This document shows, one piece after another, positions 5,766-51,769 of a DNA stretch of 55,008 nt. The first letter of the stretch is position 1, and the number at the start of each line of letters is the position of its first letter. The notes beneath the pieces are model-generated. The model had not been told where the DNA came from, did not search any database, and saw only the letters and a program-made list of their open reading frames with translations. A program made the translations under genes and the position numbers. The DNA is from a virus (Duplodnaviria; Heunggongvirae; Uroviricota; Caudoviricetes): positions 1 through 55,008 of IMG/VR virus record IMGVR_UViG_3300045988_134234, one strand, 5' to 3'.

Positions 5766-5810
5766 AGAAATACCCGGTTTGTCTACATCGCCGCTATGGT
5801 TGATCAAATG

Positions 5811-5840
5811 TGTTAGAAAATCAAAATTGATTTTCTAACA
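5811..5840. promoter_or_regulatory. 30-bp near-perfect palindromic operator TGTTAGAAAATCAAA/ATTGATTTTCTAACA
   Basis: Inverted pair of the dispersed motif between divergent Ref-like gene and the 5882.. operon. Confidence 0.6.
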
Positions 5841-5881
5841 CAAAATGAAGATACTTTTTTCAGACGCTATATCAGGAGGTC

Positions 5882-10381: not shown

Positions 10382-10413
10382 TCCTGAACACATCGTTTAT
10401 GCACTCAAAATGG

Positions 10414-10443
10414 TGTTAGAATATTGATTTTAATTTTCTAACA
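10414..10443. promoter_or_regulatory. operator-like inverted pair TGTTAGAA...TTTCTAACA
   Basis: Between phosphatase gene and the 10486 gene. Confidence 0.5.
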
Positions 10444-10485
10444 TATTATTTTACCGCTTGGAACAAAACAGAGTCGGTATACATT

Positions 10486-24786: not shown

Positions 24787-24859
24787 GAACAATCAAAAAA
24801 AAGCGGTTTTATCCTTTACTCACCTTGTTATTCAGCATAAATTTGTCACAGGACTTTTA

Positions 24860-24875
24860 TGTTAGAAAACTAAAT
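24860..24875. promoter_or_regulatory. operator-like motif TGTTAGAAAACTAAAT about 12 nt upstream of the 24888 ATG
   Basis: Motif immediately precedes RBS/start of the 345-aa gene. Confidence 0.45.
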
Positions 24876-24887
24876 CGAGTAGGAATA

Positions 24888-27471: not shown

Positions 27472-28835
27472 TAGTCATCCTCCGGCTGGTCTATCGCAAT
27501 CTCGTCATCCACAGCATCAAAACCGGTATCCCCCGCGTCATAATCACCGTAGATATCAGCCGTGGCGGAAGGGTCTATATTCAGGTCTTCATCATTGGCC
27601 TCAAATTCACCGGCTTTACGTTCTCCGTTCCGGTCGTAATCCCCCATCCCAAGCCTATCAACGATTTTCGCTACTTCAGCCCGGCGTTGTGCAAGCCATT
27701 GTGGGAGTCCAGCTTGTTGCTCGGCAAACTGCTTCGCCTCTTTATCCAGTTGCTCATCATCAACATCGTTAACGTCAGAAACCGGAGGCTCCAGAAGTGA
27801 GATCGCTTTTGCCGCTCGTGCCGCCAGGATAGCCGGGACACTGACGCCCTGCCGCTCGATATATTCAGCAACACCTATATCATCCAGCTCCTCGCGCTCA
27901 CGCATACGTATAGCGGCGGCGATAACTCTGGCGGCGCGTGCGTCAGCGCCAATGCGATACTCAATCTCCTTGCCACGCTGCTCGGCTTGTAGGCGGGCAA
28001 TCGCCAGTTTTTCTCTGGCCTCAGCCTCCCTGAATGCCTGCTGACGCGCGCCCTGCGCAAGTTTTTCATCCCCCTGGCGTAGCTTCTGCTCGTTCTGATA
28101 GATGGCTGCCAGCCTGGTGATAAAGTCATTCATGTAGTAGGCCGCATCGCTGATCAGTCCGAGAAGACGCTGCCCTGGGTGCATCCCCTCTGGCTGTGTA
28201 TCACCGAGGGCGTCAATCTCTTCCTGTAGTCGCTCCGCTTCCTGGTCAACGATAGCCTGATACTGAATTGCTCGTTCCTGCGCCATCTGTATCGCAAGTC
28301 GTAAATGTTCAGTCGCGCCGTTCTTCATCATCTCACGGGCGACGTTGGTGGCTGGCAAAGTGGCGCTTTGAGCTGATGAATCAGGGATCATTTGCAATGA
28401 TCCCTTGTTTCGTTGGGCTTTTTCGCTGCTTTTAGGGATCATTTCTCCAATTTCATCACAAAATGATCCCTTCACATCCTTGTGTATCTTGCTGTTATTG
28501 CTTGACTTTTCTTTGTGATCCGCATTTTGTTTTTGCGGCATGGCGCGGAACCGTCCACCAGCTAACGATTTGTCAGTTTTTGTAAATTCTGTGCTTTTAT
28601 CAGCCTTTTTTTGCTCTTTTTTTGAGCCGGTGGCGCAGCTTTTTGCGCGCTGTTTTGTACTTTTCCCGGCAGCCTTAGCTTTCGCCTTAACCTCATTTTT
28701 TTTCATATTGAGATGCTTTCTGGCGGTGTTAAAGCTGAGGTCATGCTGCTCGCAATATTCTTTTATGGTGATCCCGGTTTCTTCTCTTAACTCCAGGAAC
28801 TTAGCTCGATGCGCTTCCCAGTTAATTAACGTCAT
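27471..28835 (-). CDS. pacA: terminase small subunit (PacA-like) containing pac-like GATC cluster
   Basis: N-terminal HTH-like (ITIKEYCEQHDLSFNTARKHL), Lys-rich region, acidic C-terminus; overlaps pacB start. Confidence 0.6.
   Translation of the reverse strand: MTLINWEAHRAKFLELREETGITIKEYCEQHDLSFNTARKHLNMKKNEVKAKAKAAGKSTKQRAKSCATGSKKEQKKADKSTEFTKTDKSLAGGRFRAMPQKQNADHKEKSSNNSKIHKDVKGSFCDEIGEMIPKSSEKAQRNKGSLQMIPDSSAQSATLPATNVAREMMKNGATEHLRLAIQMAQERAIQYQAIVDQEAERLQEEIDALGDTQPEGMHPGQRLLGLISDAAYYMNDFITRLAAIYQNEQKLRQGDEKLAQGARQQAFREAEAREKLAIARLQAEQRGKEIEYRIGADARAARVIAAAIRMREREELDDIGVAEYIERQGVSVPAILAARAAKAISLLEPPVSDVNDVDDEQLDKEAKQFAEQQAGLPQWLAQRRAEVAKIVDRLGMGDYDRNGERKAGEFEANDEDLNIDPSATADIYGDYDAGDTGFDAVDDEIAIDQPEDD
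28383..28520. promoter_or_regulatory. pac-like cluster of five GATC-containing heptamers (GGGATCA/TGATCCC)
   Basis: GATC at about 28386, 28399, 28437, 28465, 28516 arranged as inverted pairs within pacA codons about 105-150. Confidence 0.5.
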
Positions 28836-29224
28836 AGGGAAGCCTCACGTTTTTTCACAGCGGCGTTCCATAGCTGGTTAGTCATCGCCACCAACTGACG
28901 CTGCTCCTTTCGTAATTGAGCTTCTATCTTTCGGTTGGTGTTTTTCACCAACAGCCGACCGAATTCAGGAGTGCGCCCGCGCACCTTGAACTGGTATCCA
29001 TTCAGGCCATGTAACCAATATTTCCGGGGGTATACGCGGTCGTCTATTTCGCAAATGGCACGACTGGAACGAACAAAAAAACGTATGATGTTATTTACGT
29101 TTACGCGCGACACATGAAGGTGAGGATATTGTGCTTTTGCACGGCTGGTGATTTCGGTGACCGTCAGATAGCAGTCAGCCCTGATCATGATATCCGCTAT
29201 TTCGGCGCTACTGATTTGCTCCAT
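28832..29224 (-). CDS. hypothetical protein immediately upstream of pacA (Lpa-like position)
   Basis: 130 aa; operator palindrome directly upstream. Confidence 0.35.
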   Translation of the reverse strand: MEQISSAEIADIMIRADCYLTVTEITSRAKAQYPHLHVSRVNVNNIIRFFVRSSRAICEIDDRVYPRKYWLHGLNGYQFKVRGRTPEFGRLLVKNTNRKIEAQLRKEQRQLVAMTNQLWNAAVKKREASL

Positions 29225-29301
29225 TTATCCCCCGGATAGAAAAAGACCGAGGGGATGATAATCAGCTTGTTAATACTGAGAAGACTGTCAAAAACATGAT
29301 G

Positions 29302-29331
29302 TATTAGAAAATTAATATTAATTTACTAACA
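29302..29331. promoter_or_regulatory. operator-like imperfect palindrome TATTAGAAAATTAAT/ATTAATTTACTAACA
   Basis: Upstream of the 29224 start. Confidence 0.5.
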
Positions 29332-29715
29332 CTACCAGCGGGATAAACGAACAACATGCTTAACTTTTGCCTCCCACTTCCCTTTATGTTTGTTGATCAC
29401 CGCCTGGGCCATCTTCAGACTGGCTTCAAAATCGGCTTTTCGACCACTATTACCCACCAGCAACGCTCCGTCTATTTCAGGTAAGCATAAGTAATCCTGC
29501 TCGACGGTAAGCGGCATTGATGATGTAACCTGGCAGGCTTTCCATCTGAAGCGTATGCGCACACTCCTGACTGACATCACGACATAACCTGATATTGTGC
29601 TCTTGTGTCCGGCGTCTGTGCGTGTAGCCTTGCATGATGTTATCTTGCAGGTGATGATGTCCCAACCAATGTGCATCGCATCCTCAATGCGTAATTTAGT
29701 AGCCTCGTACATCAA
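29332..29715 (-). CDS. hypothetical protein (127 aa)
   Basis: ORF; overlaps next gene. Confidence 0.4.
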   Translation of the reverse strand: MMYEATKLRIEDAMHIGWDIITCKITSCKATRTDAGHKSTISGYVVMSVRSVRIRFRWKACQVTSSMPLTVEQDYLCLPEIDGALLVGNSGRKADFEASLKMAQAVINKHKGKWEAKVKHVVRLSRW

Positions 29716-30287
29716 AAAACCTCCCAGTCAGTAGCGATAATATCAACACCAGTTGCAAACCAGTCTGTCTGCGCCTGTAAATCCCCATTCATCATTACCA
29801 GGCGAGGCATAACCATCACATCACAACCTTCAACAATATCGAATGCCTCTTCCGGCAGGAATTCGACGAGCTTTTCTTTGCTACCAACACTGCCACGGAG
29901 CATCGATATATAGCTCCCTTTAGGCCATGATGTTCGCCGGGCATCAAGCCCCTTCATCATCCAGTAAAAGGCCGATGAGAACGGGATGTTCTTTTTGGCG
30001 ATGAGCACGTTATTCGCTTCTGTGTACTTCAGGAACTTAACTAACCTTACCATCGACTCGGATAACGCAATGTACGGCTCATGATTGATTGCTGACACAC
30101 TTACGCCGTGCAGTCCAACACTTACCACTGTCATATCACCGTTCTGTGCGGTTTCGATGTTGACGCCTTTACGAACTAACGCTGCATAAAGCTCCTCGCG
30201 CTTTTGCGTCCAGCATTCTCGTCGCCCTATAAAGTCACTCAAAACGAGATCATCTTCTGAATACGCGTTATCGTTCGCCGTTAACAT
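29712..30287 (-). CDS. hypothetical protein (191 aa)
   Basis: ORF downstream of tRNA island. Confidence 0.45.
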   Translation of the reverse strand: MLTANDNAYSEDDLVLSDFIGRRECWTQKREELYAALVRKGVNIETAQNGDMTVVSVGLHGVSVSAINHEPYIALSESMVRLVKFLKYTEANNVLIAKKNIPFSSAFYWMMKGLDARRTSWPKGSYISMLRGSVGSKEKLVEFLPEEAFDIVEGCDVMVMPRLVMMNGDLQAQTDWFATGVDIIATDWEVF

Positions 30288-30741: not shown

Positions 30742-30817
30742 TGGTGGCCCCTACCGGACTTGAACCGGTGACCGTGCGATTATGAGTCGCCCGCTCTAAC
30801 CACTGAGCTAAGGGGCC
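30742..30817 (-). tRNA. tRNA anticodon CAU (Met or Ile2 via lysidine)
   Basis: RC reads GGCCCCTTAGCTCAGTGGTTAGAGC...CTCATAA...GGTTCAAGTCC...GGGGCCACCA; resembles recalled E. coli ileX/ileY-type tRNA. Confidence 0.8.
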
Positions 30818-30826
30818 AGATTACTG

Positions 30827-30955
30827 TTAATTACGCTTACGCTTTTTGCCAGAACCGCGTAAGGCTTTTGCCGCTTGCTCTACCCCGTATGCAACCACCA
30901 GCAGAAACAATAATGTCCACTCCGGGTTTTTATCGGCAAACGCCCAAAAATCCAT
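30827..30955 (-). CDS. possible small membrane peptide (~42 aa)
   Basis: MDFWAFADKNPEWTLLFLLVVAYG...; AGGTGG RBS-like upstream; approximate coordinates. Confidence 0.3.
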   Translation of the reverse strand: MDFWAFADKNPEWTLLFLLVVAYGVEQAAKALRGSGKKRKRN

Positions 30956-31133
30956 CACTTGCAGCCACCTTTTAAGACAAAACGCCATTGCTGTTAGGTT
31001 GCGGTGCCGGGTGCCTCCCGGTGACGTTAACCAGTTAACAATTAACGCCGGATCACTTATGGATTCTCGTTACGCCAGTAAAAAGACCACCTTTACTGTT
31101 TTAACTGTTCCGCGTGCGCTTAGCCGCATTCAC

Positions 31134-31246
31134 CGCAATGGTAAGAGCATTTGGCTGACTGGGCGGCGATGACGCCTGTACGCATTTGGTGATCCGGTTC
31201 TGCTTCCGGCATTCGCTTAATTAGCCAAATACTCTTAACGTTGCGA
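31134..31246. repeat. long-hairpin family unit B (abuts 3' end of tRNA-Ser)
   Basis: CGCAATGGTAAGAGCATTT ... AAATACTCTTAACGTTGCG. Confidence 0.45.
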
Positions 31247-31333
31247 TGGCGGAGAGTAATGGAATCGAACCATCATCGCTTGCGCGACGGGACGGTTTTC
31301 AAGACCGCTTGAGCACCATGCTCCCTACTCTCC
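31247..31333 (-). tRNA. tRNA-Ser (anticodon UGA), class II with long variable arm
   Basis: RC reads GGAGAGT...GCGGTCTTGAAAACCGT (anticodon TGA)...long variable arm...GGTTCGATTCC...ACTCTCCGCCA. Confidence 0.65.
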
Positions 31334-31483
31334 AGTGATTGTGGTGGTCGGTACTGATCTCCGACTGCGCCTCTTTTTTTCATAGCGCATAAGGCCGGTC
31401 AGTGCGCTTGATGACTGAGGCATCGATATTTACTACGCCGCCTCGTTGCCATAGGGCGGACTTGCGCGCCAGCAACGCGCATT

Positions 31484-31573
31484 CACCACAACGGAAAGAG
31501 CATTTATGGCTCGCATCGCGGGAAAAAGCCCACGGTAGAGAGTCGAACTCTACAAATGCTCTTACCTGTTGTG
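31484..31573. repeat. long-hairpin family unit C with internal T-loop-like hairpin
   Basis: CACCACAACGGAAAGAGCATTT ... AAATGCTCTTACCTGTTGTG; internal GTAGAG-TTCGACT-CTCTAC on minus strand. Confidence 0.45.
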
Positions 31574-31698
31574 TTGTGATGACCGGTGCTGATCTCCGGC
31601 TTGCGGTAATTTCAGACTCTCACGGGCGTTTAATTGCCCCGCCGAACAGCTCTTTTCCGCAATAGCTGCAATGTCTTTCGCGCATCAGCCTGCGCATT

Positions 31699-31788
31699 CA
31701 TCACAACGGTAAGGGTACTTCGTAGGGATTCGAACCCTCTGCCAAGCTCGGCGATCTCCGACGTCGCAAAATACCCTTACCTGTTGTG
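31699..31788. repeat. long-hairpin family unit D with internal T-arm-like GGGTTCGAATCCC (abuts tRNA-Thr)
   Basis: CATCACAACGGTAAGGGTA ... TACCCTTACCTGTTGTG; tRNA-like but lacks D-arm and CCA. Confidence 0.45.
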
Positions 31789-31789
31789 C

Positions 31790-31865
31790 TGGTGCCGATT
31801 AACGGACTCGAACCGCTGACATCCTGCTTACAAGGCAGGCGCTCTACCAACTGAGCTAAACCGGC
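31790..31865 (-). tRNA. tRNA-Thr (anticodon UGU)
   Basis: RC reads GCCGGTTTAGCTCAGTTGGTAGAGC GCCTGCCTTGTAAGCAGG...GGTTCGAGTCC...AATCGGCACCA. Confidence 0.8.
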
Positions 31866-31867
31866 AT

Positions 31868-31943
31868 TGGCGATGGTGGATGGATTTGAACCATCGACCC
31901 GTTGATTAACAGTCAACCGCTCTAACCGCTGAGCTACACCATC
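31868..31943 (-). tRNA. tRNA-Asn (anticodon GUU)
   Basis: RC reads GATGGTGTAGCTCAGCGGTTAGAGC GGTTGACTGTTAATCAACG...GGTTCAAATCC...CACCATCGCCA. Confidence 0.8.
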
Positions 31944-33259: not shown

Positions 33260-33289
33260 TGTTAGAAAGACAATTCTAATTTTCTAACA
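33260..33289. promoter_or_regulatory. operator-like inverted pair TGTTAGAAA-N12-TTTCTAACA
   Basis: Perfect 9-bp arms; downstream of the 402-aa gene, at the head of the non-coding tRNA island. Confidence 0.5.
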
Positions 33290-33291
33290 CA

Positions 33292-34520: not shown

Positions 34521-34534
34521 TTAGTTTTCTAACA
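34521..34534. promoter_or_regulatory. operator-like motif (TTAGTTTTCTAACA) in promoter of the 402-aa gene
   Basis: About 20 nt upstream of the 34500 start. Confidence 0.4.
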
Positions 34535-34575
34535 TATTTTATTAGTATGCAATTTCAATAAAAAGACTCAGGCAA

Positions 34576-34597
34576 CAAAAAACCCGCCAACTGGCGG
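34576..34597 (-). terminator. rho-independent terminator (minus strand)
   Basis: CCCGCC-agtt-GGCGGG followed by T6 on minus strand. Confidence 0.5.
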
Positions 34598-34609
34598 GTT
34601 TATGACCGT

Positions 34610-35132: not shown

Positions 35133-35576
35133 TTAATCAAGATTTACATATTCCGTGATAGCTTTTATGGCTTCATCGGCACTGCGCGCCTCAAAGCAGT
35201 AATAGCCTGCTTCCGTGAGGCGGGTCATCCAGACGAGCTGTTCGGGAGTCAGACGGTTTCTCCCGTGCTTCATCTCAATGCGCATTCCGTGATACCCACC
35301 ACGAGCAAGGTCAATAGAAAGGTCCGGATAGCCCTTCTTCTGACCTTCTGCCACCATCTTAATGGCTGTCCTTTTGCCTCTCAGGCCGCCGTTCGGTGTT
35401 GAGTGTGTGTGCTCATACACGTATCGCATGTTGCGATACAGCCAATCCAGAACGCGAACCTGTTCGTAATGTTCGTAATTCCGTTTTAATAAGTCAGGAT
35501 TTCTTTCTAACTCTCTTAGTGCAGCAGCGTGCGGGGATATTTCAGAATACGCACTATGATGCCTGCGCCTTCGCAT
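35133..35576 (-). CDS. VRR-NUC domain nuclease-like protein
   Basis: GYPDLSIDLARGGYHGMRIEMK resembles recalled VRR-NUC (PD-(D/E)xK) signature; ATG at second Met. Confidence 0.55.
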   Translation of the reverse strand: MRRRRHHSAYSEISPHAAALRELERNPDLLKRNYEHYEQVRVLDWLYRNMRYVYEHTHSTPNGGLRGKRTAIKMVAEGQKKGYPDLSIDLARGGYHGMRIEMKHGRNRLTPEQLVWMTRLTEAGYYCFEARSADEAIKAITEYVNLD

Positions 35577-35579
35577 CAA

Positions 35580-35590
35580 ATTTCTAACAC
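35580..35590. promoter_or_regulatory. operator-like motif abutting VRR-NUC start
   Basis: TGTGTTAGAAATTTG immediately 5' of start on minus strand. Confidence 0.35.
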
Positions 35591-35765
35591 AAACTTCCTG
35601 AAATCATGAACACGATAATAACAAGAGCGTTAGTTTTATCAAAACCGAGGGGAATACTACTAAAGAGATAGGTGGATGCAACAGGTCGGACTTGTTTTTA
35701 GAGTAAATGGTGATGCGGGTCAACAAGCCGGGTAAATTGTATGTCATTTACCCAACTTGTTATTT

Positions 35766-36026
35766 TTAATGGTTTATTTTATCCGGTTCGTTAATTTCCG
35801 TAACCGCCTTGTCGATAGCAATCATCCATCCTTCATAGGATAAATCATCAACAAGCCCCACCAGCTTATCGTCAGTGTGCGGAAAATAAATCCATCCCCA
35901 TTTCGAAGGGTTTTCTATATGCCGCAGGGTAAATACCCGCTTATAACGGTGGTATTCAAGGGCGTATCCCTTCCCTTGTGAGTACGCTTTTAAGTCGTCG
36001 ATCGTAAACCTACGATTCTTTCGCAT
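35766..36026 (-). CDS. hypothetical protein (86 aa)
   Basis: ORF downstream of DarB-like gene. Confidence 0.4.
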   Translation of the reverse strand: MRKNRRFTIDDLKAYSQGKGYALEYHRYKRVFTLRHIENPSKWGWIYFPHTDDKLVGLVDDLSYEGWMIAIDKAVTEINEPDKINH

Positions 36027-36028
36027 GG

Positions 36029-36463
36029 CTACCCCACGATTCGATATTTCTCTATAGACTCGTCGTAACTTGTGTATACGTATGGCTCTGTATCATCAGC
36101 ATAAGGCGCGACTTCCAGAGCATGAACGGGATTGTATACCGCGTCATTTTCCAGGCGATCGCTCGAATACAGATGCCCGGCTAAAACCGTAAGCGCCGGG
36201 CGACTCATTTTGTAGATCTCTGCCACATCACTATCTACAACTTGTCCAAATGATATGTCGCCGCGCTCCAGCAATAACGTTTTAAGCGCAGGCCACCACG
36301 GCCCATAAAGGTGATAAAGCTGTGGATCTCTTTTCAGCCTTTCCACCATGCCATCCAGATATGCATCCAGAAACGCCTCTTCACTCCTGCCATTGAGCGC
36401 CTGCGGCAAAATGTCCTCAAGGTAGGATTCCGTCGGTTTTACAGTGTCAATTAATGTCGTCAT
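36029..36463 (-). CDS. hypothetical protein (144 aa)
   Basis: ORF downstream of DarB-like gene. Confidence 0.45.
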   Translation of the reverse strand: MTTLIDTVKPTESYLEDILPQALNGRSEEAFLDAYLDGMVERLKRDPQLYHLYGPWWPALKTLLLERGDISFGQVVDSDVAEIYKMSRPALTVLAGHLYSSDRLENDAVYNPVHALEVAPYADDTEPYVYTSYDESIEKYRIVG

Positions 36464-36499
36464 TCAAATTCGGCCCCGGATGGGGCCGCTCCTTATCTG

Positions 36500-39400
36500 T
36501 TAGGCCGCATCGGCGATTATTTTACGCAGTTCATCTACCGAGTAACGCGTAGATACCATCCATGCCGGACGGTCAAAGTTCACATCAGCAACCGGGTTTG
36601 CTTCAAAATTCCAGAAACGCCCGCCAATCTTCTTAATCGCGTCTTTGGCGTTCCGTATTGTCGAGGAACCAGGTTGGTCGGCAATGAGATAAACCGCGCC
36701 AACGTCCTCGCTGACGCTCCACCAGCGCCCGCGAACACGCGCCTTAGCGCGAATCGGCTTATCATTAACCACAATGATATAGTCATCATTCGCCGCTTCA
36801 TCAGCTCTGGCTTCTGCCACTGCCGCCTGCTCTTCTCTTTTGCTTTCAGCCTGTTCAAGCCTTTCCGCGATCTCTGATTCGGTGGCTCCGCCGTTTTTCA
36901 GCGATACATAGTCTTGCCACGTTGCTGATTTGAGCGCATCCGGCAACTCATTCACATAGTCACCGTCTTTCAACTCACGGGCGCGGCGGGTAGCCATTTC
37001 TACCAGGCGATTAACAGAAACAGCATCAGCAAAATCGTCCTTACTAATGTGTTTTTCATCAAATGCATTGATGACAGCCCCCACCTTAATCCACTGTGCT
37101 GCCGGTGATTCCAGGGGGTTATCAGCCTGGACAATGGCGAGTTTCGCTCCATCTACCCCATTATTCGCCAACTGTTCCAGTGCCGCCCATCCATCTGCAT
37201 CACTGAGTGATTTATATTGCTCAAACAATGCATCGCGCCAGGCCACCAGCGCAGAACGTGTTTTTTCGATCTTCGTCTTAATTTTCGCGATCTTGACCTG
37301 ATTAAACATCCGTTCAATATCATCGATATTGCTAAAGGCTTTCATCCTGCCCTTGAATAAACGGTATGCCAGCACGGTCCTCCAGAATGATTCCAGACCT
37401 TCTCCGGACGGTTTGCGGAACAAGCTAAGAATATCTTCAGAAGTGACTTTATTAAGCGAACGACCTGACAGACCACGCCCAGCCATCCAGTTTTCGAACT
37501 CCTGGGCAACATCATCCATCGTTGCCTGTGCGCCCCATGCCTGCATTCCCTGGATGTAATCATACCCATACAATGCCTGGAGGAATCCCTCACCGTCCAC
37601 GATATTCAGCGGGTTATCACTGGCTTGTATTTTTGCCACTTCACGCTTCAGCGCCTCATCGTTGCCATCTGGATATATCCATCGTTCAGGTGCTATATCC
37701 GATGCTCGCCCGATTTTTTGGCCTATCACGCCATCATAGGCCGATGACAGCGCGATCTGACCATCATCTGTGCGATATGCCCAGTATTTAATAGCTGACC
37801 CACCGCCCCATGCATTACCAGGTTTACCAGCAATAACATTCATTACCCCATTGCGAATAGCATCATAGAACTGATCGCGAGTAAGTATTGTTGATAGCTG
37901 GTGGCACTGAACACCACGCGCAGCCGTTGCGCGCGATTCAGCTACCCCCTCTTCAAAAGTTACCGCTTCAATCACAGAGTCAAACGGCAATGTAACGATT
38001 GACCCCGGTGATCGAGCGTAACGACTTGCTCTATCCAGCCAGGCGATACGGCAGAGGTATTGTGCTTTTTCACCGTCAATTTTTTCCACCCGGACAATCG
38101 CTGTTGTTTCGCGATCATCAATGACTGCACGGTAATAACTACCTTTATGCAACAGGATATTCTTGTCAGTGCGCATATATTCCTGTGGGTTCTGAATAAC
38201 ATCGATACTGATATCCAGCACACCAGACTTAATAGCGCGCTCCACATCACCACGAGAGCGTTTCATTATGGTATCCGCGTCTTTTGCCCTGGTGATCGCA
38301 AACCGCAGCACCCGCGCACGTTTTCTGTAGCTACTCAACTGCTCAAGCGCGAATTTTTGCCCATTCCTGTTCGTACCCGCTTTTATCAGGTCGTCAAGAT
38401 TTCGCTGGTAATACTCTATCTGTTCCATCGCGCTTTTCAGTTCTGTCTCCATCATGCCGATATCTTTTCCAGCGGCGTTTGCCGCTTTCAGGTAGATATC
38501 GAGAGCATTGTTGGCCTCGCGCTGTGCTTTCAGTTTCAGACGTTCTTCACGCTCTTGCGCCTGGCGAGCCATGATTGCGCGGCGTTCTTCCGGGTTTGCC
38601 GCCAGCATAATGGCGCGTTCATCAGCATCATCCGCATCACCATTGGCGATCTCTGACATGTCGGAGGTCATCACCATCTTGATCCAGTCTTTCTTACGTT
38701 TCAGCGTATCCAGACGGAAGTCGTCGAATGTGCCTTTGCCACAATAGTAGTGAACATTGACCTTCTCTTGCGGTGAACCTACGCGCGCACCGCGCCCATT
38801 TCGTTGGTCGATACTGGCTGGTGTCCAGGGTAGTGTCAGGTGGTGGATATCGGTTGTCCCGATATGCAGGTTAATACCTACTTCAGCCTTCTTGTTACAG
38901 ATAATGATGCGCGTGCGCCCTTCGTTATAGTCGGCGGCAATGCCTTCCATACCCTCAAGGCCAGCATCATTTTTAGCTGAGAGATAATCCTCATATTGGG
39001 CAAGTTTGCTGTAGTAGGTTTCCCATGCCCCTTCTTTGTATTCACCGTTTTTATTCGGAGTAGGTTCAGTCGGCTTATTCACCTTCTTCAGCTTGATGCC
39101 GCCAGCCTGGCTAACGGTCGTCGCATTGATAATGCCTATCTCCTGCTCCGGCATTTGCAGTGCACTGGCGATAATACGGCGCAGCTTCTGGTGCTGGGCT
39201 TTTTCATCAATGAAGACAATTTGTTTACCGTTCTTCAGACCTTCACGAAGGTTTTCGATCAGCGCGGCATACTTCGGCGGGATGGGGTGTGATACCTGCT
39301 GCAGATCAATCCCGGCGGCAGCAATGGCCTTCAGTATTTCAGCTTCCAGTTCAATGCTGGCACGTATTTCAACATGCGCCGGATGTTCACTAAAGGTGGT

Positions 39401-42400
39401 CTTCACTACCTTACTGGTGCGCGTACTAACCAGCCCACCAGCGCCGTCTTCTTCGGCCTCGTCTGCATCATCTGCCACTTTACCGCCAGCTACTTTTGGC
39501 AGGGCATCAGCAATAGCTTTTACCTTGTCTGCAAGCTCAACGGGGAACTGGAATGTAATCGCACTGGCATACAGATCCGGATCTATAGCAACCTTATCCA
39601 TGTCGCGGATGATGGAGAAGATGAAATCATCCGGTTTTTCGTTTGTGATATGCCCGTTTTCATCAACCGTCAGCGCATCTTTACTACTTAACTCCTGTGC
39701 ACGCTTACGAAGCTCTTCATAAGCAGCCTCCTGCTCCCCTGTCATCGGGATCTGCAAGGTATTCTCGACAATATCAGGGATTTTAACCGTCGCCCCGACG
39801 TCCGCAGCAGTCTTCAGAGTAGTCCAGCGATGGAAAATACCACGCAGGCCATCAAGGTTCTGGAAGCCAACCAGCCCCTGCTTCTCTTCCACTTCCCCGG
39901 AAATTTTCTGGACCTGAACTGTGGCTGTTTTACCAAACACACGAACGAAATCATCAGGCGTAATGATGCCCATGCGCATCCACTCTTCCTGCGGAATGAC
40001 AGTAGACAGCATGTTGAAGGCATCAATCGGACTGTTCACCAGCGGTGTTGCCGTCAGCATCACTACACCACGCCCGTTGTTGCGTTTCATCATGTACGCA
40101 GCTTTTACAGCCATGTCGCGGGCCATCTTGGATACTGCCGGGTTAGGCAAATATGCCAGTTGTCCCGCTTCACGCCCGGCATTAAAGGAGTTGCGGTAGT
40201 TATGCCCCTCGTCGGCAATCACGCTATCGAAGTTCATATCCTCAAAGTACGGGATATTCTGCTTCTTCGTTGTACCGGTATTCGCGGCCTGATCCTTAAT
40301 CTTGTTCTTCTTCTGCGCATCACGGTGTTTACCAGACGCCAGGTCAAGACGCCCCATTTCCACAGCATTAAAGACAGCTTGCTGTGAGTTCTCCTCGATG
40401 GTTTTTTCTCGTAGCGGGATAGACGCGAATTGTTCTTTTGTCATGATGACCGTTCGCCAATTTGACGACGGGATCATGTTCATGCGCTGAACGATAACGG
40501 CGCTGGCGGACTCTTTCACAACATTTCTGGTAAGAGGCTGCCCGTTACTGTCGAGGCGTGGTTCGCCATTTTCATCAAGCACCGGCGCGGTCAGAATATT
40601 TCCGCTGTCATCACGAACTTCATCCAGACCGATAAACATCATATTGGCGAAGGCATCAGCACTGTAGAAGCTCTGTGCCTCGTGATACCAGTTCTGATAA
40701 ACCGCCTTCGGAACAACAATACACGTGCGTTTAGTACGACCTGTTTCGAAGTTATACGCCTCAAGCGCAAGCGCGGTCGTGGTTTTACCCAGCCCGGTAC
40801 CAAATCCCATGATGCCGCGCCCATCTTCTGACAAGCGACGAACTTCTTCATTCTGATAAGTCAGAGGAATGCGCTTTCCACTAATCCCTTCCAGGCCAAG
40901 CGGTGCGTTAGAGTGCGTGAACGGAATGAAGCCATTGAATGCGTCGTTATAGTCACGGGCTATCTGATCCGCCTGCGGGTGGGTGCGTAACCAGTCGTTA
41001 AAGCTAACTTCCAGTTGAGCAATTTTATCCAGGTACTCGTTAGCGTTCTGCCCACGCGGTTTAACACCGTTCAGGTAGTTTTCTAACTGGTTCAGGAAGC
41101 CGTCTTTATTGTTGGCCTTCTTGAACTCATTCCCGTTTTTGCCGTTTACGGTTCGTAGCTGATAGCCGGTAAATACCCCGTCCTTACCTTCGTAATCGTC
41201 CGGAGATACCAGAATGCCATCGACGACCTTCAGATCAGGTTCAGTGTACTTAAACTCGTCATAGCCCTGCTCTGCCAGGAACTCTTTTATCAAGCGGCGA
41301 TCCAGCCAGCGGGCGTTCAGATTAACGGTGACTTTATTTAGTGGCGTGAAAATGCGTTTCTCTTCGATTTTCGCCAACTGACGCTCAAAGTTCGCTTTCT
41401 GCTCACCTGTTGATGCATCACGCCAGCCCACCAGCAATGCTGTTTTGGTTACAATATCGCCGCTGGTGGCGCGGTCCATCGGCAGCAGGCAGCCATACCC
41501 ATCAATAGCGATATCATCAAATTTCGCCAGGTATTCAAGGGCCGCGTCGTCGTCCTCTGGCAGTTCACCAGCAAACGCCTCACGAAAGTCGCCCAGCGTT
41601 ATAGGATTAAGGGCTACATCACTGAAAAGATGTGCTATCACTTGTTCCGGACGTGTAAAGTCAATACCGGCAGCACCATCCGTTACATCAAGTCGCCCTG
41701 CCAGAAGGTCAGAAGTGGAACCATCCTGTTTCACATTGCCAGTGAACGTCATCCAGTTTTTAGCGCCAGCTTCAGCAAGCCCATTCAGCTTAATCGCGTG
41801 CGGTGGTCCATACTTCGCAACTTCTGCTGCCGCCAGGCGGGATGCATCTGCCAGTTTGTCATCAACGTTCACCCCCAGGTTACGCAAATCAAGTGCCTTG
41901 TTGATCAACTGCCCTATCAACGCACCGCGCATAACGCGCTCCCTGTCTTTTTCTCGCTGTTTGCCAGCAAAGCGAATCATTGCTGCCACTTCATCACTGA
42001 CAACCGATGGATAGTCGGACGCGATCGCCGATATCTGGTCCCATGACAAAGCCAGAATCCCGTTTGTTGACTGGAACGCGATCTGCAGATCGCCAAACGT
42101 CGAAACACCATATCGACTTACATCAAGCGCGGAGGATTTGGTTGTCGTGTCCTTAACCCATTTCAGGCCATCAAACTCATGCCAGATACCGCCTACAAGA
42201 CGCTTATCCCCTACTTTTGCGCCCTGCCATGCCTGGGTAGTTACTCCGAGCAAATCCCAATTAATACGGCTTTCAAAGCGGCGTGATAACGCGGTTTTCA
42301 TCGACTCATTGGATACACGACCGTCCTTTTTCACCACCAGGGTATTGCGGAAGCTGGTGCGTTCCATGTCGCCGTAAACAAATCGCTTCCCTTCGGTTGT

Positions 42401-43351
42401 AAACCATTTCCCTTTGAGGAAGGTATCCCAAAGGACGTTTGCCGATTTGAGCGTTGCATCATCCGTGTCGGGGATCATCTCCAGGAAGGTTTCCGGGTGT
42501 TTACGCAATACCCATACGTCCACCACGGTATCTGTACCGGATTCGCTGAACGTACCAGAAGGCATACGATGCGCGCCCAAAAATTCCGCTTTACGGCTGA
42601 CTTTATCGCGCAATTTTTTGTATTTCGTACCATCGGTCATGCCATTCGGCACCACCAATACAATTAGTCCACCAGGCTTAACCTTGTCGATCGTGCGCAG
42701 CACAAAATAATTGCCAACGTTCTTCTCGTTTGCATATGCCGGATCAAGCCCGGCGACGCCGGAACGCCCTTCACCAAACGGTACGTTACCAACTGCGTGG
42801 TCATACATTGCATCTTTCGCCGCCAGCGCCTCAAACGCCCCGATATTCACATCATCTTCCGGGTGCAAAAGCTGGTTTATTCGACCGGAGATCGGAGACA
42901 GTTCGGCGCTGGTCATTATCATGCCCTGCCGTTTTGTCTCCTGGAAAATACCTGTGCCTGCTGACGGTTCCAGTACGTGACCGCTATCAATACCGTAGTC
43001 GCCGAAGAGATCCCATATACCTTCTGCCATAAACTGTGGCGTATAGTATTCGTATTGGCTGCCCTCACCATCTGTCAGGCCGCCTTCACCGGTATACCCG
43101 GCAAGAATCTGACGCTGTTCGTCAGTTAATTTCGCCCCATCGAAGCCAGGCGGAAGGGAATTAAGAAGATTTACTGCGGCGTTGTTTGCTGCCCGGCGTG
43201 TTTTCTGAATACTGACGCCATCGACTTTCTTAACGCCAAAGGTCACTACAGCTCGCGGTTTATGCAACCGACTAACAATTTCAATCAGCGCCCCAATGCT
43301 GGTGGCCTGGCTAATTGAATCAATTATTTTGTCCAAAGGAAGCCCCCTCAA
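36500..43351 (-). CDS. darB: giant methyltransferase-helicase (P1 DarB-like antirestriction protein)
   Basis: 2283 aa; N6-MTase motifs EPSAGTGIF and NVPFGE; SF2 helicase motifs GFGTGLGKTT, DEGHNYRN, TATPLVNS, QRNGRGARVG; size close to recalled P1 DarB (about 2255 aa). Confidence 0.7.
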   Translation of the reverse strand: MRGLPLDKIIDSISQATSIGALIEIVSRLHKPRAVVTFGVKKVDGVSIQKTRRAANNAAVNLLNSLPPGFDGAKLTDEQRQILAGYTGEGGLTDGEGSQYEYYTPQFMAEGIWDLFGDYGIDSGHVLEPSAGTGIFQETKRQGMIMTSAELSPISGRINQLLHPEDDVNIGAFEALAAKDAMYDHAVGNVPFGEGRSGVAGLDPAYANEKNVGNYFVLRTIDKVKPGGLIVLVVPNGMTDGTKYKKLRDKVSRKAEFLGAHRMPSGTFSESGTDTVVDVWVLRKHPETFLEMIPDTDDATLKSANVLWDTFLKGKWFTTEGKRFVYGDMERTSFRNTLVVKKDGRVSNESMKTALSRRFESRINWDLLGVTTQAWQGAKVGDKRLVGGIWHEFDGLKWVKDTTTKSSALDVSRYGVSTFGDLQIAFQSTNGILALSWDQISAIASDYPSVVSDEVAAMIRFAGKQREKDRERVMRGALIGQLINKALDLRNLGVNVDDKLADASRLAAAEVAKYGPPHAIKLNGLAEAGAKNWMTFTGNVKQDGSTSDLLAGRLDVTDGAAGIDFTRPEQVIAHLFSDVALNPITLGDFREAFAGELPEDDDAALEYLAKFDDIAIDGYGCLLPMDRATSGDIVTKTALLVGWRDASTGEQKANFERQLAKIEEKRIFTPLNKVTVNLNARWLDRRLIKEFLAEQGYDEFKYTEPDLKVVDGILVSPDDYEGKDGVFTGYQLRTVNGKNGNEFKKANNKDGFLNQLENYLNGVKPRGQNANEYLDKIAQLEVSFNDWLRTHPQADQIARDYNDAFNGFIPFTHSNAPLGLEGISGKRIPLTYQNEEVRRLSEDGRGIMGFGTGLGKTTTALALEAYNFETGRTKRTCIVVPKAVYQNWYHEAQSFYSADAFANMMFIGLDEVRDDSGNILTAPVLDENGEPRLDSNGQPLTRNVVKESASAVIVQRMNMIPSSNWRTVIMTKEQFASIPLREKTIEENSQQAVFNAVEMGRLDLASGKHRDAQKKNKIKDQAANTGTTKKQNIPYFEDMNFDSVIADEGHNYRNSFNAGREAGQLAYLPNPAVSKMARDMAVKAAYMMKRNNGRGVVMLTATPLVNSPIDAFNMLSTVIPQEEWMRMGIITPDDFVRVFGKTATVQVQKISGEVEEKQGLVGFQNLDGLRGIFHRWTTLKTAADVGATVKIPDIVENTLQIPMTGEQEAAYEELRKRAQELSSKDALTVDENGHITNEKPDDFIFSIIRDMDKVAIDPDLYASAITFQFPVELADKVKAIADALPKVAGGKVADDADEAEEDGAGGLVSTRTSKVVKTTFSEHPAHVEIRASIELEAEILKAIAAAGIDLQQVSHPIPPKYAALIENLREGLKNGKQIVFIDEKAQHQKLRRIIASALQMPEQEIGIINATTVSQAGGIKLKKVNKPTEPTPNKNGEYKEGAWETYYSKLAQYEDYLSAKNDAGLEGMEGIAADYNEGRTRIIICNKKAEVGINLHIGTTDIHHLTLPWTPASIDQRNGRGARVGSPQEKVNVHYYCGKGTFDDFRLDTLKRKKDWIKMVMTSDMSEIANGDADDADERAIMLAANPEERRAIMARQAQEREERLKLKAQREANNALDIYLKAANAAGKDIGMMETELKSAMEQIEYYQRNLDDLIKAGTNRNGQKFALEQLSSYRKRARVLRFAITRAKDADTIMKRSRGDVERAIKSGVLDISIDVIQNPQEYMRTDKNILLHKGSYYRAVIDDRETTAIVRVEKIDGEKAQYLCRIAWLDRASRYARSPGSIVTLPFDSVIEAVTFEEGVAESRATAARGVQCHQLSTILTRDQFYDAIRNGVMNVIAGKPGNAWGGGSAIKYWAYRTDDGQIALSSAYDGVIGQKIGRASDIAPERWIYPDGNDEALKREVAKIQASDNPLNIVDGEGFLQALYGYDYIQGMQAWGAQATMDDVAQEFENWMAGRGLSGRSLNKVTSEDILSLFRKPSGEGLESFWRTVLAYRLFKGRMKAFSNIDDIERMFNQVKIAKIKTKIEKTRSALVAWRDALFEQYKSLSDADGWAALEQLANNGVDGAKLAIVQADNPLESPAAQWIKVGAVINAFDEKHISKDDFADAVSVNRLVEMATRRARELKDGDYVNELPDALKSATWQDYVSLKNGGATESEIAERLEQAESKREEQAAVAEARADEAANDDYIIVVNDKPIRAKARVRGRWWSVSEDVGAVYLIADQPGSSTIRNAKDAIKKIGGRFWNFEANPVADVNFDRPAWMVSTRYSVDELRKIIADAA

Positions 43352-43488
43352 AACCGTTAAATCCGCCTTAAGCGGTTCGGTTTGAGAGGGTATGGAGAAT
43401 GTTATTTTCAGGGATGAACGACACTACCGTCAAAATCACATACTCACCATAGTTTGCCTACTTATTAACCCATGAGCGGGAGAAATAT

Positions 43489-43974
43489 ATGGCAAACATT
43501 GAACCTCGCTGGCTTATTGAGGCCCGTAAAAATATTGGAGTCACCGAAATAAAAGGAGCGAAACACAATCCAGAGATCGTTCAGTTCTGGCGGGATATTA
43601 AGCGCAGCGGAATTAAAGACGACGAAACGCCGTGGTGCGCTGCATTTGTTGGTGCAATGCTGGAACGTGTAGGTATCCGCTCAACAAGATTTGAGTCGGC
43701 AAAATCCTATCTGGATTGGGGCGAGAAATTAGATACACCGGCATACGGATGTATCGTTGTATTTACTCGCGCAGGCGGTGGGCATGTAGGCTTTGTTGTC
43801 GGACACCGCGCCAATGGCGATCTGCTTGTCTTGGGTGGGAACCAGGGGGATGCTGTTAATATTCGCGCATTCCCAACATCAAGAGTGTCTGGCTATCGCT
43901 GGCCTGCTGGCGAACCACGCAATACAGCTCTGTTACCAGTCGGAGACGCAGCAACCTCAACTAATGAGGCATAA
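43489..43974 (+). CDS. NlpC/P60- or CHAP-like peptidase family protein
   Basis: Conserved Cys (TPWCAAFVG) and His (GGGHVGFVVG) spacing typical of papain-like cell-wall hydrolases. Confidence 0.5.
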   Translation: MANIEPRWLIEARKNIGVTEIKGAKHNPEIVQFWRDIKRSGIKDDETPWCAAFVGAMLERVGIRSTRFESAKSYLDWGEKLDTPAYGCIVVFTRAGGGHVGFVVGHRANGDLLVLGGNQGDAVNIRAFPTSRVSGYRWPAGEPRNTALLPVGDAATSTNEA

Positions 43975-45462: not shown

Positions 45463-45491
45463 GATTAGAAACATCAATTTAATTTTCTAAC
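45463..45491. promoter_or_regulatory. operator-like inverted pair GATTAGAAA...TTTTCTAACA (plus a single copy at about 45395..45410)
   Basis: Upstream of second Icd/Ant-like module. Confidence 0.5.
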
Positions 45492-45549
45492 ATACATTTT
45501 CGAGCGATGAAATTCCCGCCGCACGGTTATTGTACAGTCAATCGCAACA

Positions 45550-46497: not shown

Positions 46498-46669
46498 CAG
46501 ATAGTTCCGTGAAAAATCTATCTACCGTATAAATCTATGCCAGTGGATTTATACACCCAAAAGCCGCTACTCAGCGGCTTTTGCTTTTTTTGGCAGTCGC
46601 TACCGAAGCAGTGACCGCGATCCTACTCGATCACGTGCCGTCGGATCAACAGTGTATAAAAACACACTG

Positions 46670-46693
46670 TGTTAGAAAATTAAGCTAGCTTTT
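46670..46693. promoter_or_regulatory. operator-like motif TGTTAGAAAATTAAGCTAGC
   Basis: In the 200-bp gap upstream of the 46497 start. Confidence 0.45.
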
Positions 46694-50383: not shown

Positions 50384-51769
50384 TCAGGTTTCCAGCCCAA
50401 AATCGCTTTGTTCTGTTTTGGCTTCGAACATCGTGAAGTTAAGCCCTTTCCCCTCTCCATGTTCCAGTTCAATCTCATTAGAAACAGCGGTCAAAATACT
50501 ACGTAGATCGACATCTCCACCGCCGAACATATCGCCCAACGCCTGCTGTTTATGAATCAGTTCGTCGTTGATTTTTTGTGCCATTTTTTTGAATGCAGCC
50601 CCCATGCGCTTCGCGCTTCGATTATTTGCCACGATGAATAGCGCCAACGCCTCAGCTTCCGGCGTGCTATCACCGAAGAGTCCGCGCTGGGCTATCACCT
50701 CTTCCACTGCCTGACCGTTGTCTTTGGCTTCACGAACAAGGTTAATCGCGTCCTGGAGTGCTGCTATAGCCTGTTTATCCAGACCGTTCACCTGCTCTAT
50801 ACCATCAACCAGACCAGTTACAGCATCATGATGTGCATCGCCAGAAATCGACTGCATTTGCGCAAAGTCACTGGCTGCTGTATTAAGCGCGGTCAGGATA
50901 TTGCGCATTTCCGGATCCGGTTCTTCCGCCACAAGCCGAACAAGTCGCTCATCCTTATAGGCTTTGGCAAAAATCGCATTCTGAATGCGATCGATAAGCT
51001 GTTTCGTTGGACGTCCATCGGCTGTAAGCAAACCTGCCGTCGCCGTATCACCTATTTCGCGCAAAAACGCACGAATAAACGCATCATTGGACCGCGCCAG
51101 TAGATTTCCATCATCTGAAGGATTAAATAGCGCCATGACGCTCTCAGTGAGAAATTGCGCATCCGCATACGCTTTCTCACTTGCAGCCATCTCTTGCAGA
51201 TCGCTGATGTTTGAGTCGCGTGCAAATTGAGCACGATCAACGTCAGTGAGGCGCTCGCGAACCAGTACAGGCATCACCATTGCCCTGACGTCTTCGGGAT
51301 TAAGGCCAAACTCTTTAGCGTGATCGATAAGATATTGTCGGTAATCTTCAGCCTGCCCTTGTTCATAAGCACGCCAGATTCCCATGCTTCGACCATTACC
51401 AGACTCAACGACATTATCCGGACCAACAATCGGGGAACCATGACTACTCATACCCGAATCAGTGAGTTGTGCCGGGCGTAAATTGGCGGCGATACGGTTA
51501 ACCTGGAGCTTGCTTGACAGTCGGGTGCGATCGCGAGGCTGGAGTTCCTCCGGAAATGACGGATTTATACTTCCGTCCAGGTTGTTAGAAATGATGAGCT
51601 TTTTGGCATCAATAACCTTGAACGCTGTTTTAACTTCGTCGCCTTTGCTGGTGACGACATAGCTGCTACGCCCCAACTTCGTCTCTTGCTTTTCAAGAGA
51701 TGACACCACAGCGATAACCCCCTCAATGTTCGCTGCGGCCAGAAGTGCTGATGTTACGTTTTGAGTCAC
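50384..51769 (-). CDS. hypothetical protein (461 aa), last gene of DarA-like operon
   Basis: ORF in same-strand operon 54816 to 50384. Confidence 0.45.
   Translation of the reverse strand: MTQNVTSALLAAANIEGVIAVVSSLEKQETKLGRSSYVVTSKGDEVKTAFKVIDAKKLIISNNLDGSINPSFPEELQPRDRTRLSSKLQVNRIAANLRPAQLTDSGMSSHGSPIVGPDNVVESGNGRSMGIWRAYEQGQAEDYRQYLIDHAKEFGLNPEDVRAMVMPVLVRERLTDVDRAQFARDSNISDLQEMAASEKAYADAQFLTESVMALFNPSDDGNLLARSNDAFIRAFLREIGDTATAGLLTADGRPTKQLIDRIQNAIFAKAYKDERLVRLVAEEPDPEMRNILTALNTAASDFAQMQSISGDAHHDAVTGLVDGIEQVNGLDKQAIAALQDAINLVREAKDNGQAVEEVIAQRGLFGDSTPEAEALALFIVANNRSAKRMGAAFKKMAQKINDELIHKQQALGDMFGGGDVDLRSILTAVSNEIELEHGEGKGLNFTMFEAKTEQSDFGLET

Follow-up and report, generated by a model that had tools for sequence, protein, structure and literature searches.

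Are the genes that follow a giant methyltransferase-helicase parts of the same anti-restriction system, or merely its neighbors? This question is raised by positions 35133-43351 of a 55,008-nucleotide viral sequence (IMG/VR record IMGVR_UViG_3300045988_134234; hereafter, the window). Here, a gene resembling darB of phage P1 is followed by three small genes, which an earlier note, made from the sequence alone, described as two unknowns and a VRR-NUC nuclease and proposed as additional injected or anti-defense components. All four open reading frames are present as described, every one on the minus strand.

The window has a 100% identical counterpart in NZ_CP099353.1, a 94-kb plasmid of Escherichia marmotae, and phage D6, a P1 relative, shows 95% identity across the region from 35133 to 43351. 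The source is therefore a D6-like plasmid prophage of the P1 family. Such D6-like phage-plasmids are widespread and sometimes carry resistance. The region contains three functional units and is largely ordinary, with darB and ulx already known. As a whole, it is in our judgment best explained, with good though not full confidence, as a darB-ulx pair, an lxc-like gene and a separate pmgM unit. Statements on function are by analogy for every one of these genes and should be read with the distance to P1 in mind, as the P1 orthologues are only 43-56% identical.

The darB-ulx pair

The giant gene is a homologue of darB (36500-43336, minus strand). Its maximal open reading frame extends over 36500-43351 and encodes 2283 aa, although the true start is likely the TTG at 43336, which lies behind a GAGGGGG ribosome-binding site. 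The resulting length of 2278 aa agrees with the D6 annotation, and the gene is 95-100% identical to D6 orf15 at the nucleotide level. The match to P1 DarB (YP_006479, 2255 aa) is collinear, with 43% identity over 2000 aa and a score of 1521 bits, and a match to phrog_1685 spans residues 7-2283 of the giant protein.

As in P1, the protein combines an N-terminal N6-adenine methyltransferase with an SF2 (SNF2-like) helicase. Methyltransferase motif I (VLEPSAGTGIF, from residue 126) and motif IV (NVPF, at 189) are of the same type as in P1. The helicase carries motif I (the Walker A sequence GTGLGKT) at 851, motif II (DEGH) at 1047, motif III (LTATP), and motif VI (QRNGRGAR) at 1516. Four core motifs (NVPF, GTGLGKT, DEGH and QRNGRGAR) are identical in the two proteins. 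In Pfam, SNF2-rel_dom, ResIII and Helicase_C exceed their cut-offs, while N6_Mtase scores 20.1 bits, marginally short of its cut-off of 20.4. The original identification of a DarB-like methyltransferase-helicase is thus borne out by full-length homology to P1 DarB, by intact catalytic motifs, and by the presence of other Dar homologues in the window. Using P1 proteins as tblastn queries, we found homologues of hdf, darA, ddrA, ddrB and ulx, with DdrB represented by its N-terminal 442 aa only.

In P1, DarB is packaged in the head, is ejected with the DNA, and protects against EcoB and EcoK (PMC9024508, PMC12810830). Both DarB and Ulx are contained in P1 heads (PMC9024508), and a six-protein model of the P1 Dar system is available (PMC12810830). 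By orthology, DarB of the window may likewise be packaged, ejected and protective against EcoB and EcoK. DarB and Ulx would be taken up into the head after assembly steps that need hdf, darA, ddrA and ddrB, and the ejected proteins would then shield the DNA in cis from type I restriction of the EcoB/EcoK type. Late transcription of darB can here only be inferred, because P1-type late promoters (-22 box) are not enriched in the window and a candidate upstream of the gene (43423-43441) is within chance expectation.

The gene previously listed as a 144-aa unknown (36029-36463, minus strand) is identifiable as ulx. Its product matches phrog_1629 (“Ulx-like anti-restriction”) with an E value of 5e-59 and is 46% identical to P1 Ulx over 138 aa (E = 1e-44). 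The D6 record describes it as similar to ulx, and PGAP names the gene “olxA”. Searches of Pfam, NCBIfam and PDB sequences return no match for Ulx. On the strength of these sequence matches, we assign the protein as Ulx, a component of the DarB branch of the Dar system. P1 Ulx is found in heads and “aids DarB localization” (PMC9024508), and it is known as a virion protein required for DarB function. A spacer of 36 nt separates darB from ulx and holds a GC-rich stem-loop (36470-36488, minus strand) whose 7-bp GC stem is part of a fold predicted at -17.9 kcal/mol (z = -2.95).

An orphan gene in the lxc slot

The third gene (35766-36026, minus strand) encodes 86 aa, and its ATG lies 2 nt past the ulx stop. 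It comes after darB-ulx in all eight of the diverged lineages examined, with the reading frames overlapping in three of them (L012, L014 and L015), and in each lineage examined other than P1 it has a fixed place as the third gene of the darB-ulx operon. Annotated as a “hypothetical protein”, it is present in more than 120 D6-like plasmids from Escherichia, Salmonella, Shigella, Pantoea and Enterobacter. A family member was also detected by profile in Citrobacter, and regions downstream of ulx in Leclercia and Vibrio hold no member of the family. The gene apparently lacks a promoter of its own, as a crude consensus scan finds no sigma-70-like site with at least 9 of 12 matches within ulx (36029-36463). 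Searches of Pfam, NCBIfam and PDB sequences yield nothing for the 86-aa family, which is a genuine database orphan.

In P1, the corresponding slot abutting the ulx stop is occupied by lxc (bof), whose product (YP_006477, 82 aa) is a small alpha/beta protein. Lxc associates with operator-bound C1 repressor, strengthens repression and works against the antirepressor Coi (PMC8546580). BLASTP detects no similarity between the 86-aa protein and P1 Lxc, and the signal that links them comes from profile methods only. An HMM of the 86-aa family, searched with HMMER, scores Lxc at a level that 0 of 1000 shuffles reach in one set and 1 of 5000 in another. When the profile is run against 783 natural ORF segments taken from P1 and the window, Lxc is its top match (E = 0.018), and the runner-up scores 5.2 bits. 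Alignment of the family with Lxc by hhalign covers 64-71 collinear columns (64 columns at a pairwise E of 9.5e-4), and its score is reached by none of 300 shuffles. The signal is nonetheless weak, at 11 bits and a 22% hhalign probability, and is too weak for a database-wide search. A reciprocal profile cannot be built for want of natural sequence diversity in Lxc, which itself has no match in Pfam, NCBIfam or PDB sequence searches. Matches that looked like divergent Lxc proteins are frameshifted copies and not real diversity.

Predicted structural features point in the same direction. The two proteins share, in register, the predicted order of secondary structure elements, alpha-beta-beta-beta-alpha; the structure model of Lxc is of low confidence (pLDDT 57). 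Conserved Trp residues and a VRD..EEW / iRdL..EgW motif align, and the lengths are comparable (82 aa for Lxc, 84-94 aa in the 86-aa family). The degree of divergence also has a parallel among P1 relatives. Between L012 and the window, Ulx is 49% and the slot protein 24% identical; between P1 and the window, the values are 46% for Ulx and ~22% for Lxc.

Taken together, these comparisons weakly show homology to Lxc, and we consider it rather probable that the 86-aa protein is a remote Lxc homologue that acts as a co-repressor of a C1-type repressor, a function that would follow by analogy with P1. The 86-aa protein would pair with the distant C1-like repressor encoded at 24825-25925, and the two would act together on operators of the sequence TGTGTTAGAAAATTAA. 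This 16-mer is a lineage-specific motif with 15 copies in the window against 0.56 expected, whereas the P1 C1 operator consensus ATTGCTCTAATAAATTT has no match in the 55 kb at up to 3 mismatches. Across plasmids, variants of the 86-aa protein and of C1 are broadly parallel. Two plasmids are discordant, each combining a window-type 86-aa protein (98-99%) with a D6-type C1 (80.6%).

Three other readings of the gene deserve mention. The protein might instead be a third, unrecognized DarB-Ulx component, such as a chaperone, packaging adaptor or co-injected factor, with the likeness to Lxc due to chance or very distant ancestry. We regard this as unlikely, as P1 has lxc in that very slot, overlapping ulx, and Lxc is the sole notable profile match among P1 ORFs. 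Moreover, identity between the window and D6 falls to ~70% precisely where the 86-aa gene begins, which suggests a boundary left by recombination at the ulx stop. Such a mosaic breakpoint is unexpected for tight physical partners; because of this drop, near-identical DarB and Ulx proteins would have to function with 86-aa variants that are only 73% identical. Neither the text nor the virion table of the P1 proteome study (PMC9024508) names Lxc.

It is more improbable still that the Lxc-like protein is made late and loaded or ejected with DarB and Ulx, such that incoming DNA would bring along a co-repressor made in advance or the protein would serve Dar as an accessory as well. If true, co-loading would tie anti-restriction to the lysis-lysogeny decision. 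Finally, a lineage-specific moron with no relation to either Dar or Lxc, such as an inhibitor of another host system, would suit an orphan of Pfam and NCBIfam that belongs to a small family (12 matches in 1.8 billion representatives) and diverges faster than the neighboring genes. However, the slot is fixed across lineages, unlike that of typical morons, and the link to Lxc is at once statistical, positional and structural at the secondary level, so that we give this reading very little credence. The placement of the gene in the lxc slot, with a probable C1 co-repressor as its product, speaks against the suggested anti-defense role.

A probable separate unit for the VRR-NUC nuclease

Between the 86-aa gene and the nuclease gene lies a 17-bp RNA hairpin without a U-tract (35722-35761, minus strand), which would form the 3′ end of the darB-ulx-86-aa unit. 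Its predicted folding energy of -22.4 kcal/mol (z = -5.6) is equaled by none of 200 shuffles, and it is kept in D6 although local identity is only ~70%. This palindrome was also considered as a repeated regulatory site, but elsewhere in the window it has a single, weak match (3 mismatches), and we therefore treat it as an RNA hairpin. Further downstream is a sigma-70-like promoter candidate (35615-35642, minus strand) of the form TTGATA-16-TATTAT with an extended -10 TG, matching 10 of 12 consensus positions. In D6, the sole in-frame start of the gene overlaps this -10 element, which makes the candidate uncertain.

The nuclease gene (35133-35576, minus strand) encodes 147 aa from an ATG at 35576, within a maximal open reading frame of 148 aa (35133-35579). 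The VRR-NUC assignment made from the sequence is upheld. The Pfam VRR_NUC score of 26.2 bits is above the cut-off of 23.8, the catalytic residues D86, E102 and K104 are invariant in an alignment with P1 and D6, and the protein matches PDB entry 4qbl_A (E = 1e-16). At 56% identity to P1 PmgM, the sequence identifies the gene as a pmgM orthologue encoding a stand-alone VRR-NUC (PD-ExK) nuclease. Other VRR-Nuc proteins of this stand-alone type resolve junctions as dimers (PMC4103454), and by analogy the protein of the window would cleave four-way junctions in dimeric form.

An operator motif had been noted as abutting the start of this gene. A copy of TGTGTTAGAAAATTAA at 35576-35591 (minus strand) indeed overlaps the TTG/ATG start and is conserved in D6, but it is the lineage-specific C1-type motif and not the P1 operator. 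Because the operator covers the start, the gene is expected to be repressed in a lysogen and expressed upon induction. Beyond the stable hairpin, the nuclease gene thus appears to open a separate unit, which is closed by a terminator at 34580-34601. We propose that the product is a Holliday-junction-type nuclease acting as a dimer on replication or recombination intermediates, and would be neither a virion nor an anti-restriction protein.

The nuclease could alternatively be an injected or early anti-defense effector that cooperates with DarB, for instance by attacking DNA structures of host defenses or processing restriction intermediates. Its gene is found one or two genes away from the darB-ulx-86-aa cassette in six of the seven diverged lineages checked, a placement that is, by sequence alone, compatible with a functional link, and VRR-Nuc domains are reported to act as T6SS effector toxins (PMC9635880). 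Nonetheless, this proximity reflects general backbone synteny, because the conserved order reaches as far as pmgS. The protein is a plain stand-alone VRR-Nuc nearest to dimeric junction resolvases, and its gene is preceded by the hairpin and has a repressor operator on its start. P1 mutants lacking pmgM are viable, plate normally and show “normal restriction” on EcoA, EcoB and EcoK, and PmgM is not named in either the text or the virion table of the P1 proteome study (PMC9024508). An effector role is accordingly among the least probable readings of the locus. By orthology to P1, then, the nuclease shows the outcome that the earlier note itself named as refuting its proposal, absence from virions and no restriction phenotype. 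The proposal of additional injected or anti-defense components probably fails for the 86-aa gene too, and it stands for Ulx only, for which it was already known.

Comparison with D6 and P1

In D6 (MF356679), orf15-orf12 comprise the same four genes in identical order. Similarity to darB, ulx and pmgM is already annotated in the D6 record, and the P1 Dar system has already been dissected by genetics, proteomics and structure. The darB and ulx genes of D6 are 95-100% identical to those of the window at the nucleotide level. In contrast, the product of orf13 is 73% identical to the 86-aa protein, and identity is 62-82% in the intergenic region and the 5′ portion of pmgM.

P1 shares the gene content of the locus and differs in its arrangement. 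As in the window, ulx (YP_006478, 146 aa) is of similar size and lies immediately 3′ of darB, with nothing notable to set the two Ulx proteins apart, and the remaining Dar genes are present. The gene upstream of darB encodes a CHAP domain in the window, whereas in P1 it is prt. P1 pmgM is distant from darB, after pmgL, and lies in a C1-controlled unit with Op82 and Op83 on either side, whereas the copy in the window adjoins the darB cassette. Judged from these gene orders, darB-ulx-lxc-like-pmgM is the common arrangement in P1 relatives and P1 is a rearranged outlier, which cautions against inferring the function of the nuclease from its nearness to darB.

PmgM of P1 (192 aa) is longer, and its ~37 N-terminal and ~19 C-terminal residues are without counterpart in the protein of the window. 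Both would be under phage repressor control, which is predicted here from the operator. The intact PD-ExK triad and single-domain form are common to this protein, PmgM and the nucleases psNUC and stNUC (PDB 4QBL, 4QBO and 4QBN).

Other contrasts concern Lxc. In P1, lxc and ulx share 4 nt, in place of the 2-nt gap seen here, and lxc has three constitutive promoters of its own inside ulx (P1lxc, P2lxc and P3lxc); no internal promoter was found in ulx of the window. The two slot proteins are ~22% identical in the hhalign alignment. Likewise, the repressor of the window is ~21% identical to P1 C1 and would recognize a different operator. Further copies of TGTGTTAGAAAATTAA lie upstream of lpa, repL-like and c1-like genes, and C1 operators in P1 are likewise found upstream of lpa, repL and c1-type genes. 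The 86-aa protein of D6-like plasmids probably fills the co-repressor role of Lxc (Bof). If so, its family would be the first diverse set of Lxc proteins available for structure-function work, and C1-type immunity in these phage-plasmids would share the three-part logic of P1.

The element and its darB-ulx pair

The cassette outlined in the earlier note was recovered in full, with all four ORFs found at their coordinates within 35133-43351 and all on the minus strand. This region is 95.2% identical in nucleotide sequence to Escherichia phage D6 (MF356679 10918-19133), a relative of P1, and P1 darB gives only a short patch of ~80% nucleotide identity. Over a 2.1-kb stretch it matches the 94,247-bp non-mobilizable Escherichia marmotae plasmid NZ_CP099353.1 with 100% identity, and the block is present in 112 PLSDB plasmids. 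These phage and plasmid matches indicate that the window is, as judged by its sequence, a section of a plasmid prophage of the P1 family that resembles D6. The depositors of D6 annotated orf15 as similar to P1 darB, orf14 as similar to ulx, orf13 as hypothetical and orf12 as similar to pmgM.

Alignment of the giant ORF with P1 DarB (43% identity over 2000 residues) confirms that it encodes a DarB-like methyltransferase-helicase, as do methyltransferase motifs I (VLEPSAGTGIF) and IV (NVPF) and the helicase motifs Walker A (GTGLGKT), DEGH, LTATP and VI (QRNGRGAR), all of which are the same in P1. Pfam supports SNF2-related, ResIII and Helicase_C domains, with N6_Mtase slightly below its cut-off. 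The darB start is likely the TTG at 43336, preceded by a GAGGGGG ribosome-binding site, which yields the length of 2278 aa also given for D6. Homologues of hdf, darA, ddrA, ddrB, darB and ulx (6/6) lie within the window. The DdrB homologue (50384-51769, minus strand) has 461 aa compared with 995 aa in P1; conservation is confined to the first ~442 residues (ddrB-ParB domain, 64% identity), and nothing in the window corresponds to the C-terminal half of P1 DdrB. Upstream of darB and divergently transcribed is a gene for a 161-aa CHAP-domain protein (43489-43974, plus strand) that matches phrog_1259 (‘baseplate hub subunit and tail lysozyme’); prt occupies that place in P1.

The 144-aa gene had been listed as an unknown, but 46% identity of its product to P1 Ulx (E = 1e-44) and a match to phrog_1629, ‘Ulx-like anti-restriction’ (E = 5e-59), mark it as ulx; PGAP names it olxA in related plasmids. 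Ulx is one of six Dar proteins (PMC12810830), and in P1 it was found in purified virions, where it is placed in the head; it ‘aids DarB localization’ (PMC9024508). The proposal that genes downstream of darB encode further injected or anti-defence components thus holds only for Ulx, a real additional virion component that was already known. At 500-2220 of NZ_CP102376.1, a plasmid of Leclercia adecarboxylata, a gene for a 433-aa protein unlike DarB overlaps at its end with a Ulx-like gene (32% identity), and a protein kinase gene adjoins. Therefore, Ulx-family proteins may have partners other than DarB.

The gene 3' of ulx and its relation to P1 lxc

The 86-aa protein is a database orphan that belongs to no Pfam or NCBIfam family and falls into only five 90%-identity clusters. 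Its AlphaFold model (pLDDT 79, pTM 0.72) has a predicted alpha-beta-beta-beta-alpha layout, and a structural neighbour search with this model returned nothing significant. An exhaustive profile search revealed eight further small relatives. In every lineage with readable context, genes for a giant DarB-like protein and a Ulx homologue directly precede that for a family member, whose start codon often overlaps the stop codon before it. The contexts examined were D6-like elements, six contigs from metagenomes or genomes that represent four further lineages, and plasmids of Citrobacter and Pantoea, across which DarB identity to the window is 42-71% where compared.

The P1 gene in this slot, overlapping the ulx stop codon, is lxc (bof), whose product is a co-repressor of repressor C1. 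BLASTP detects no similarity between the 86-aa protein and P1 Lxc. When the family profile is compared with Lxc using hhalign, a collinear alignment of 64-71 columns is obtained (pairwise E = 9.5e-4, probability 22%; score reached by 0/300 shuffles), in which the invariant tryptophans and iRdL..EgW of the family align with W45, W68 and VRD..EEW of Lxc. The HMMER score of the profile against Lxc is 11 bits, reached by 0/1000 and 1/5000 composition-matched shuffles. In a set of 783 natural stop-to-stop segments (50 aa or longer) taken from the window and 39 kb of P1, Lxc (10.6 bits, E = 0.018) is outscored only by the query itself, and the segment ranked next has 5.2 bits. The score for Lxc is far below the level for a database-wide claim, and Lxc lacks natural diversity and hence a reciprocal profile. 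Lxc predicted alone, at low confidence, has the same order of secondary structure, in register with the alignment. The divergence of the slot proteins is what orthology would predict, since in a related locus (L012) Ulx is 49% and the slot protein 24% identical, paralleling the values for P1 (Ulx 46%, Lxc about 22%). Together, the slot, the profile scores with their controls, the secondary structure and the divergence lead us to consider the 86-aa gene the probable lxc counterpart of this lineage, encoding a remote homologue.

Most likely, the gene encodes a co-repressor of immunity and not the anti-defence factor that had been proposed. Two further caveats apply to the Lxc reading. Identities of the 86-aa protein and of C1 are broadly parallel across lineages (pairs of 100/99, 73/80, 63/66 and 27/31%), but two plasmids carry a window-type 86-aa protein with a D6-type C1. 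A promoter scan of the window found none inside ulx. Nucleotide identity between the window and D6 is 95-100% over darB and ulx, drops sharply to about 70% at 36029 (ulx stop/86-aa start), remains about 50-80% over the 86-aa gene, the spacer, the 5' part of pmgM, a 66-aa ORF and a pmgR-like gene, and recovers in pmgS; 36029 marks a sharp recombination boundary against D6. Because nearly identical DarB and Ulx coexist with 73%-identical 86-aa variants, this comparison argues against a tight physical partnership of the 86-aa protein with either. What is new here is limited to the probable identification of a widespread ‘hypothetical protein’ as Lxc.

The VRR-NUC gene, its predicted control and backbone synteny

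The VRR-NUC assignment of the 148-aa ORF is borne out by a score above the Pfam VRR_NUC threshold, retention of D86, E102 and K104, and a match to the solved VRR-Nuc protein 4qbl_A (E = 1e-16). Its product is 56% identical to P1 PmgM, and the gene is the pmgM orthologue, under predicted repressor control.

Nowhere in the window does a site match the operator consensus of P1 C1 with up to 3 mismatches. The 16-mer TGTGTTAGAAAATTAA occurs in 15 copies versus 0.56 expected, a count that no shuffle reached, and three occurrences are inverted pairs like the bivalent operators of P1. Sites include 5809-5842, 10412-10445, 24858-24873, 29300-29333, 33276-33291, 34521-34536, 35576-35591, 45479-45494 and 46668-46683. 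Copies lie upstream of pmgS-like, repL-like, c1-like (24825-25925) and Lpa late activator (28832-29224) genes; lpa-, repL- and c1-type genes are classes under C1 control in P1 (PMC8546580). Presumably, the motif serves as operator for the distant C1-like repressor encoded at 24825-25925 (21% identity to P1 C1). As had been noticed earlier, a copy (35576-35591) sits at the VRR-NUC start, overlapping the TTG/ATG, and it is conserved in D6.

A 186-nt spacer separates the VRR-NUC gene from the upstream genes, and contains a 17-bp hairpin (-22.4 kcal/mol, z = -5.6) and a strong promoter-like site. The exact promoter position is uncertain because the only in-frame start codon of D6 overlaps the predicted -10. 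The unit ends at a canonical terminator (34580-34601). Start annotations are inconsistent (window 35133-35579, NZ_CP099353.1 12555-12779, D6 10918-11412): the window ATG at 35576 is inside the operator copy, the PGAP version in the identical plasmid is a truncated one of 74 aa that lacks the conserved N-terminal helix, and the D6 annotation reaches 16 codons further upstream, to a TTG.

The suggestion that the nuclease is a virion or anti-defence component fails, by orthology, on the P1 data: an in-frame ΔpmgM mutant is viable with ‘normal restriction’ on EcoA, EcoB and EcoK hosts, and PmgM is not named in the text or virion table (PMC9024508, Table S3). A better anti-defence candidate than the genes of 35133-43351 is one for a 191-aa protein (29712-30287, minus strand), in which Pfam recognises a Tad2-like (Thoeris anti-defence 2) domain (40.4 bits, cut-off 25); in four related loci (L008, L009, L012 and L013), Tad2-like genes are likewise located a few kb away from the darB cassette. 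ARAGORN predicts four tRNA genes (Met-cat, Ser-tga, Thr-tgt and Asn-gtt) at 30742-31943 (minus strand), differing from the D6 GenBank record, which has three (Ser, Thr, Asn) in the equivalent position and on the other strand.

The proximity of the nuclease gene to darB is backbone synteny and should not be taken as a sign that the two share a function. Of seven diverged lineages, six retain the order darB-ulx-slot-(about 55 aa)-pmgM...pmgS, whereas P1 is a rearranged outlier in which type III res-mod genes adjoin lxc, and pmgM (78.9-79.4 kb) lies far from darB (10.5-17.2 kb), within a unit that has a C1 operator on either side (Op82 and Op83).
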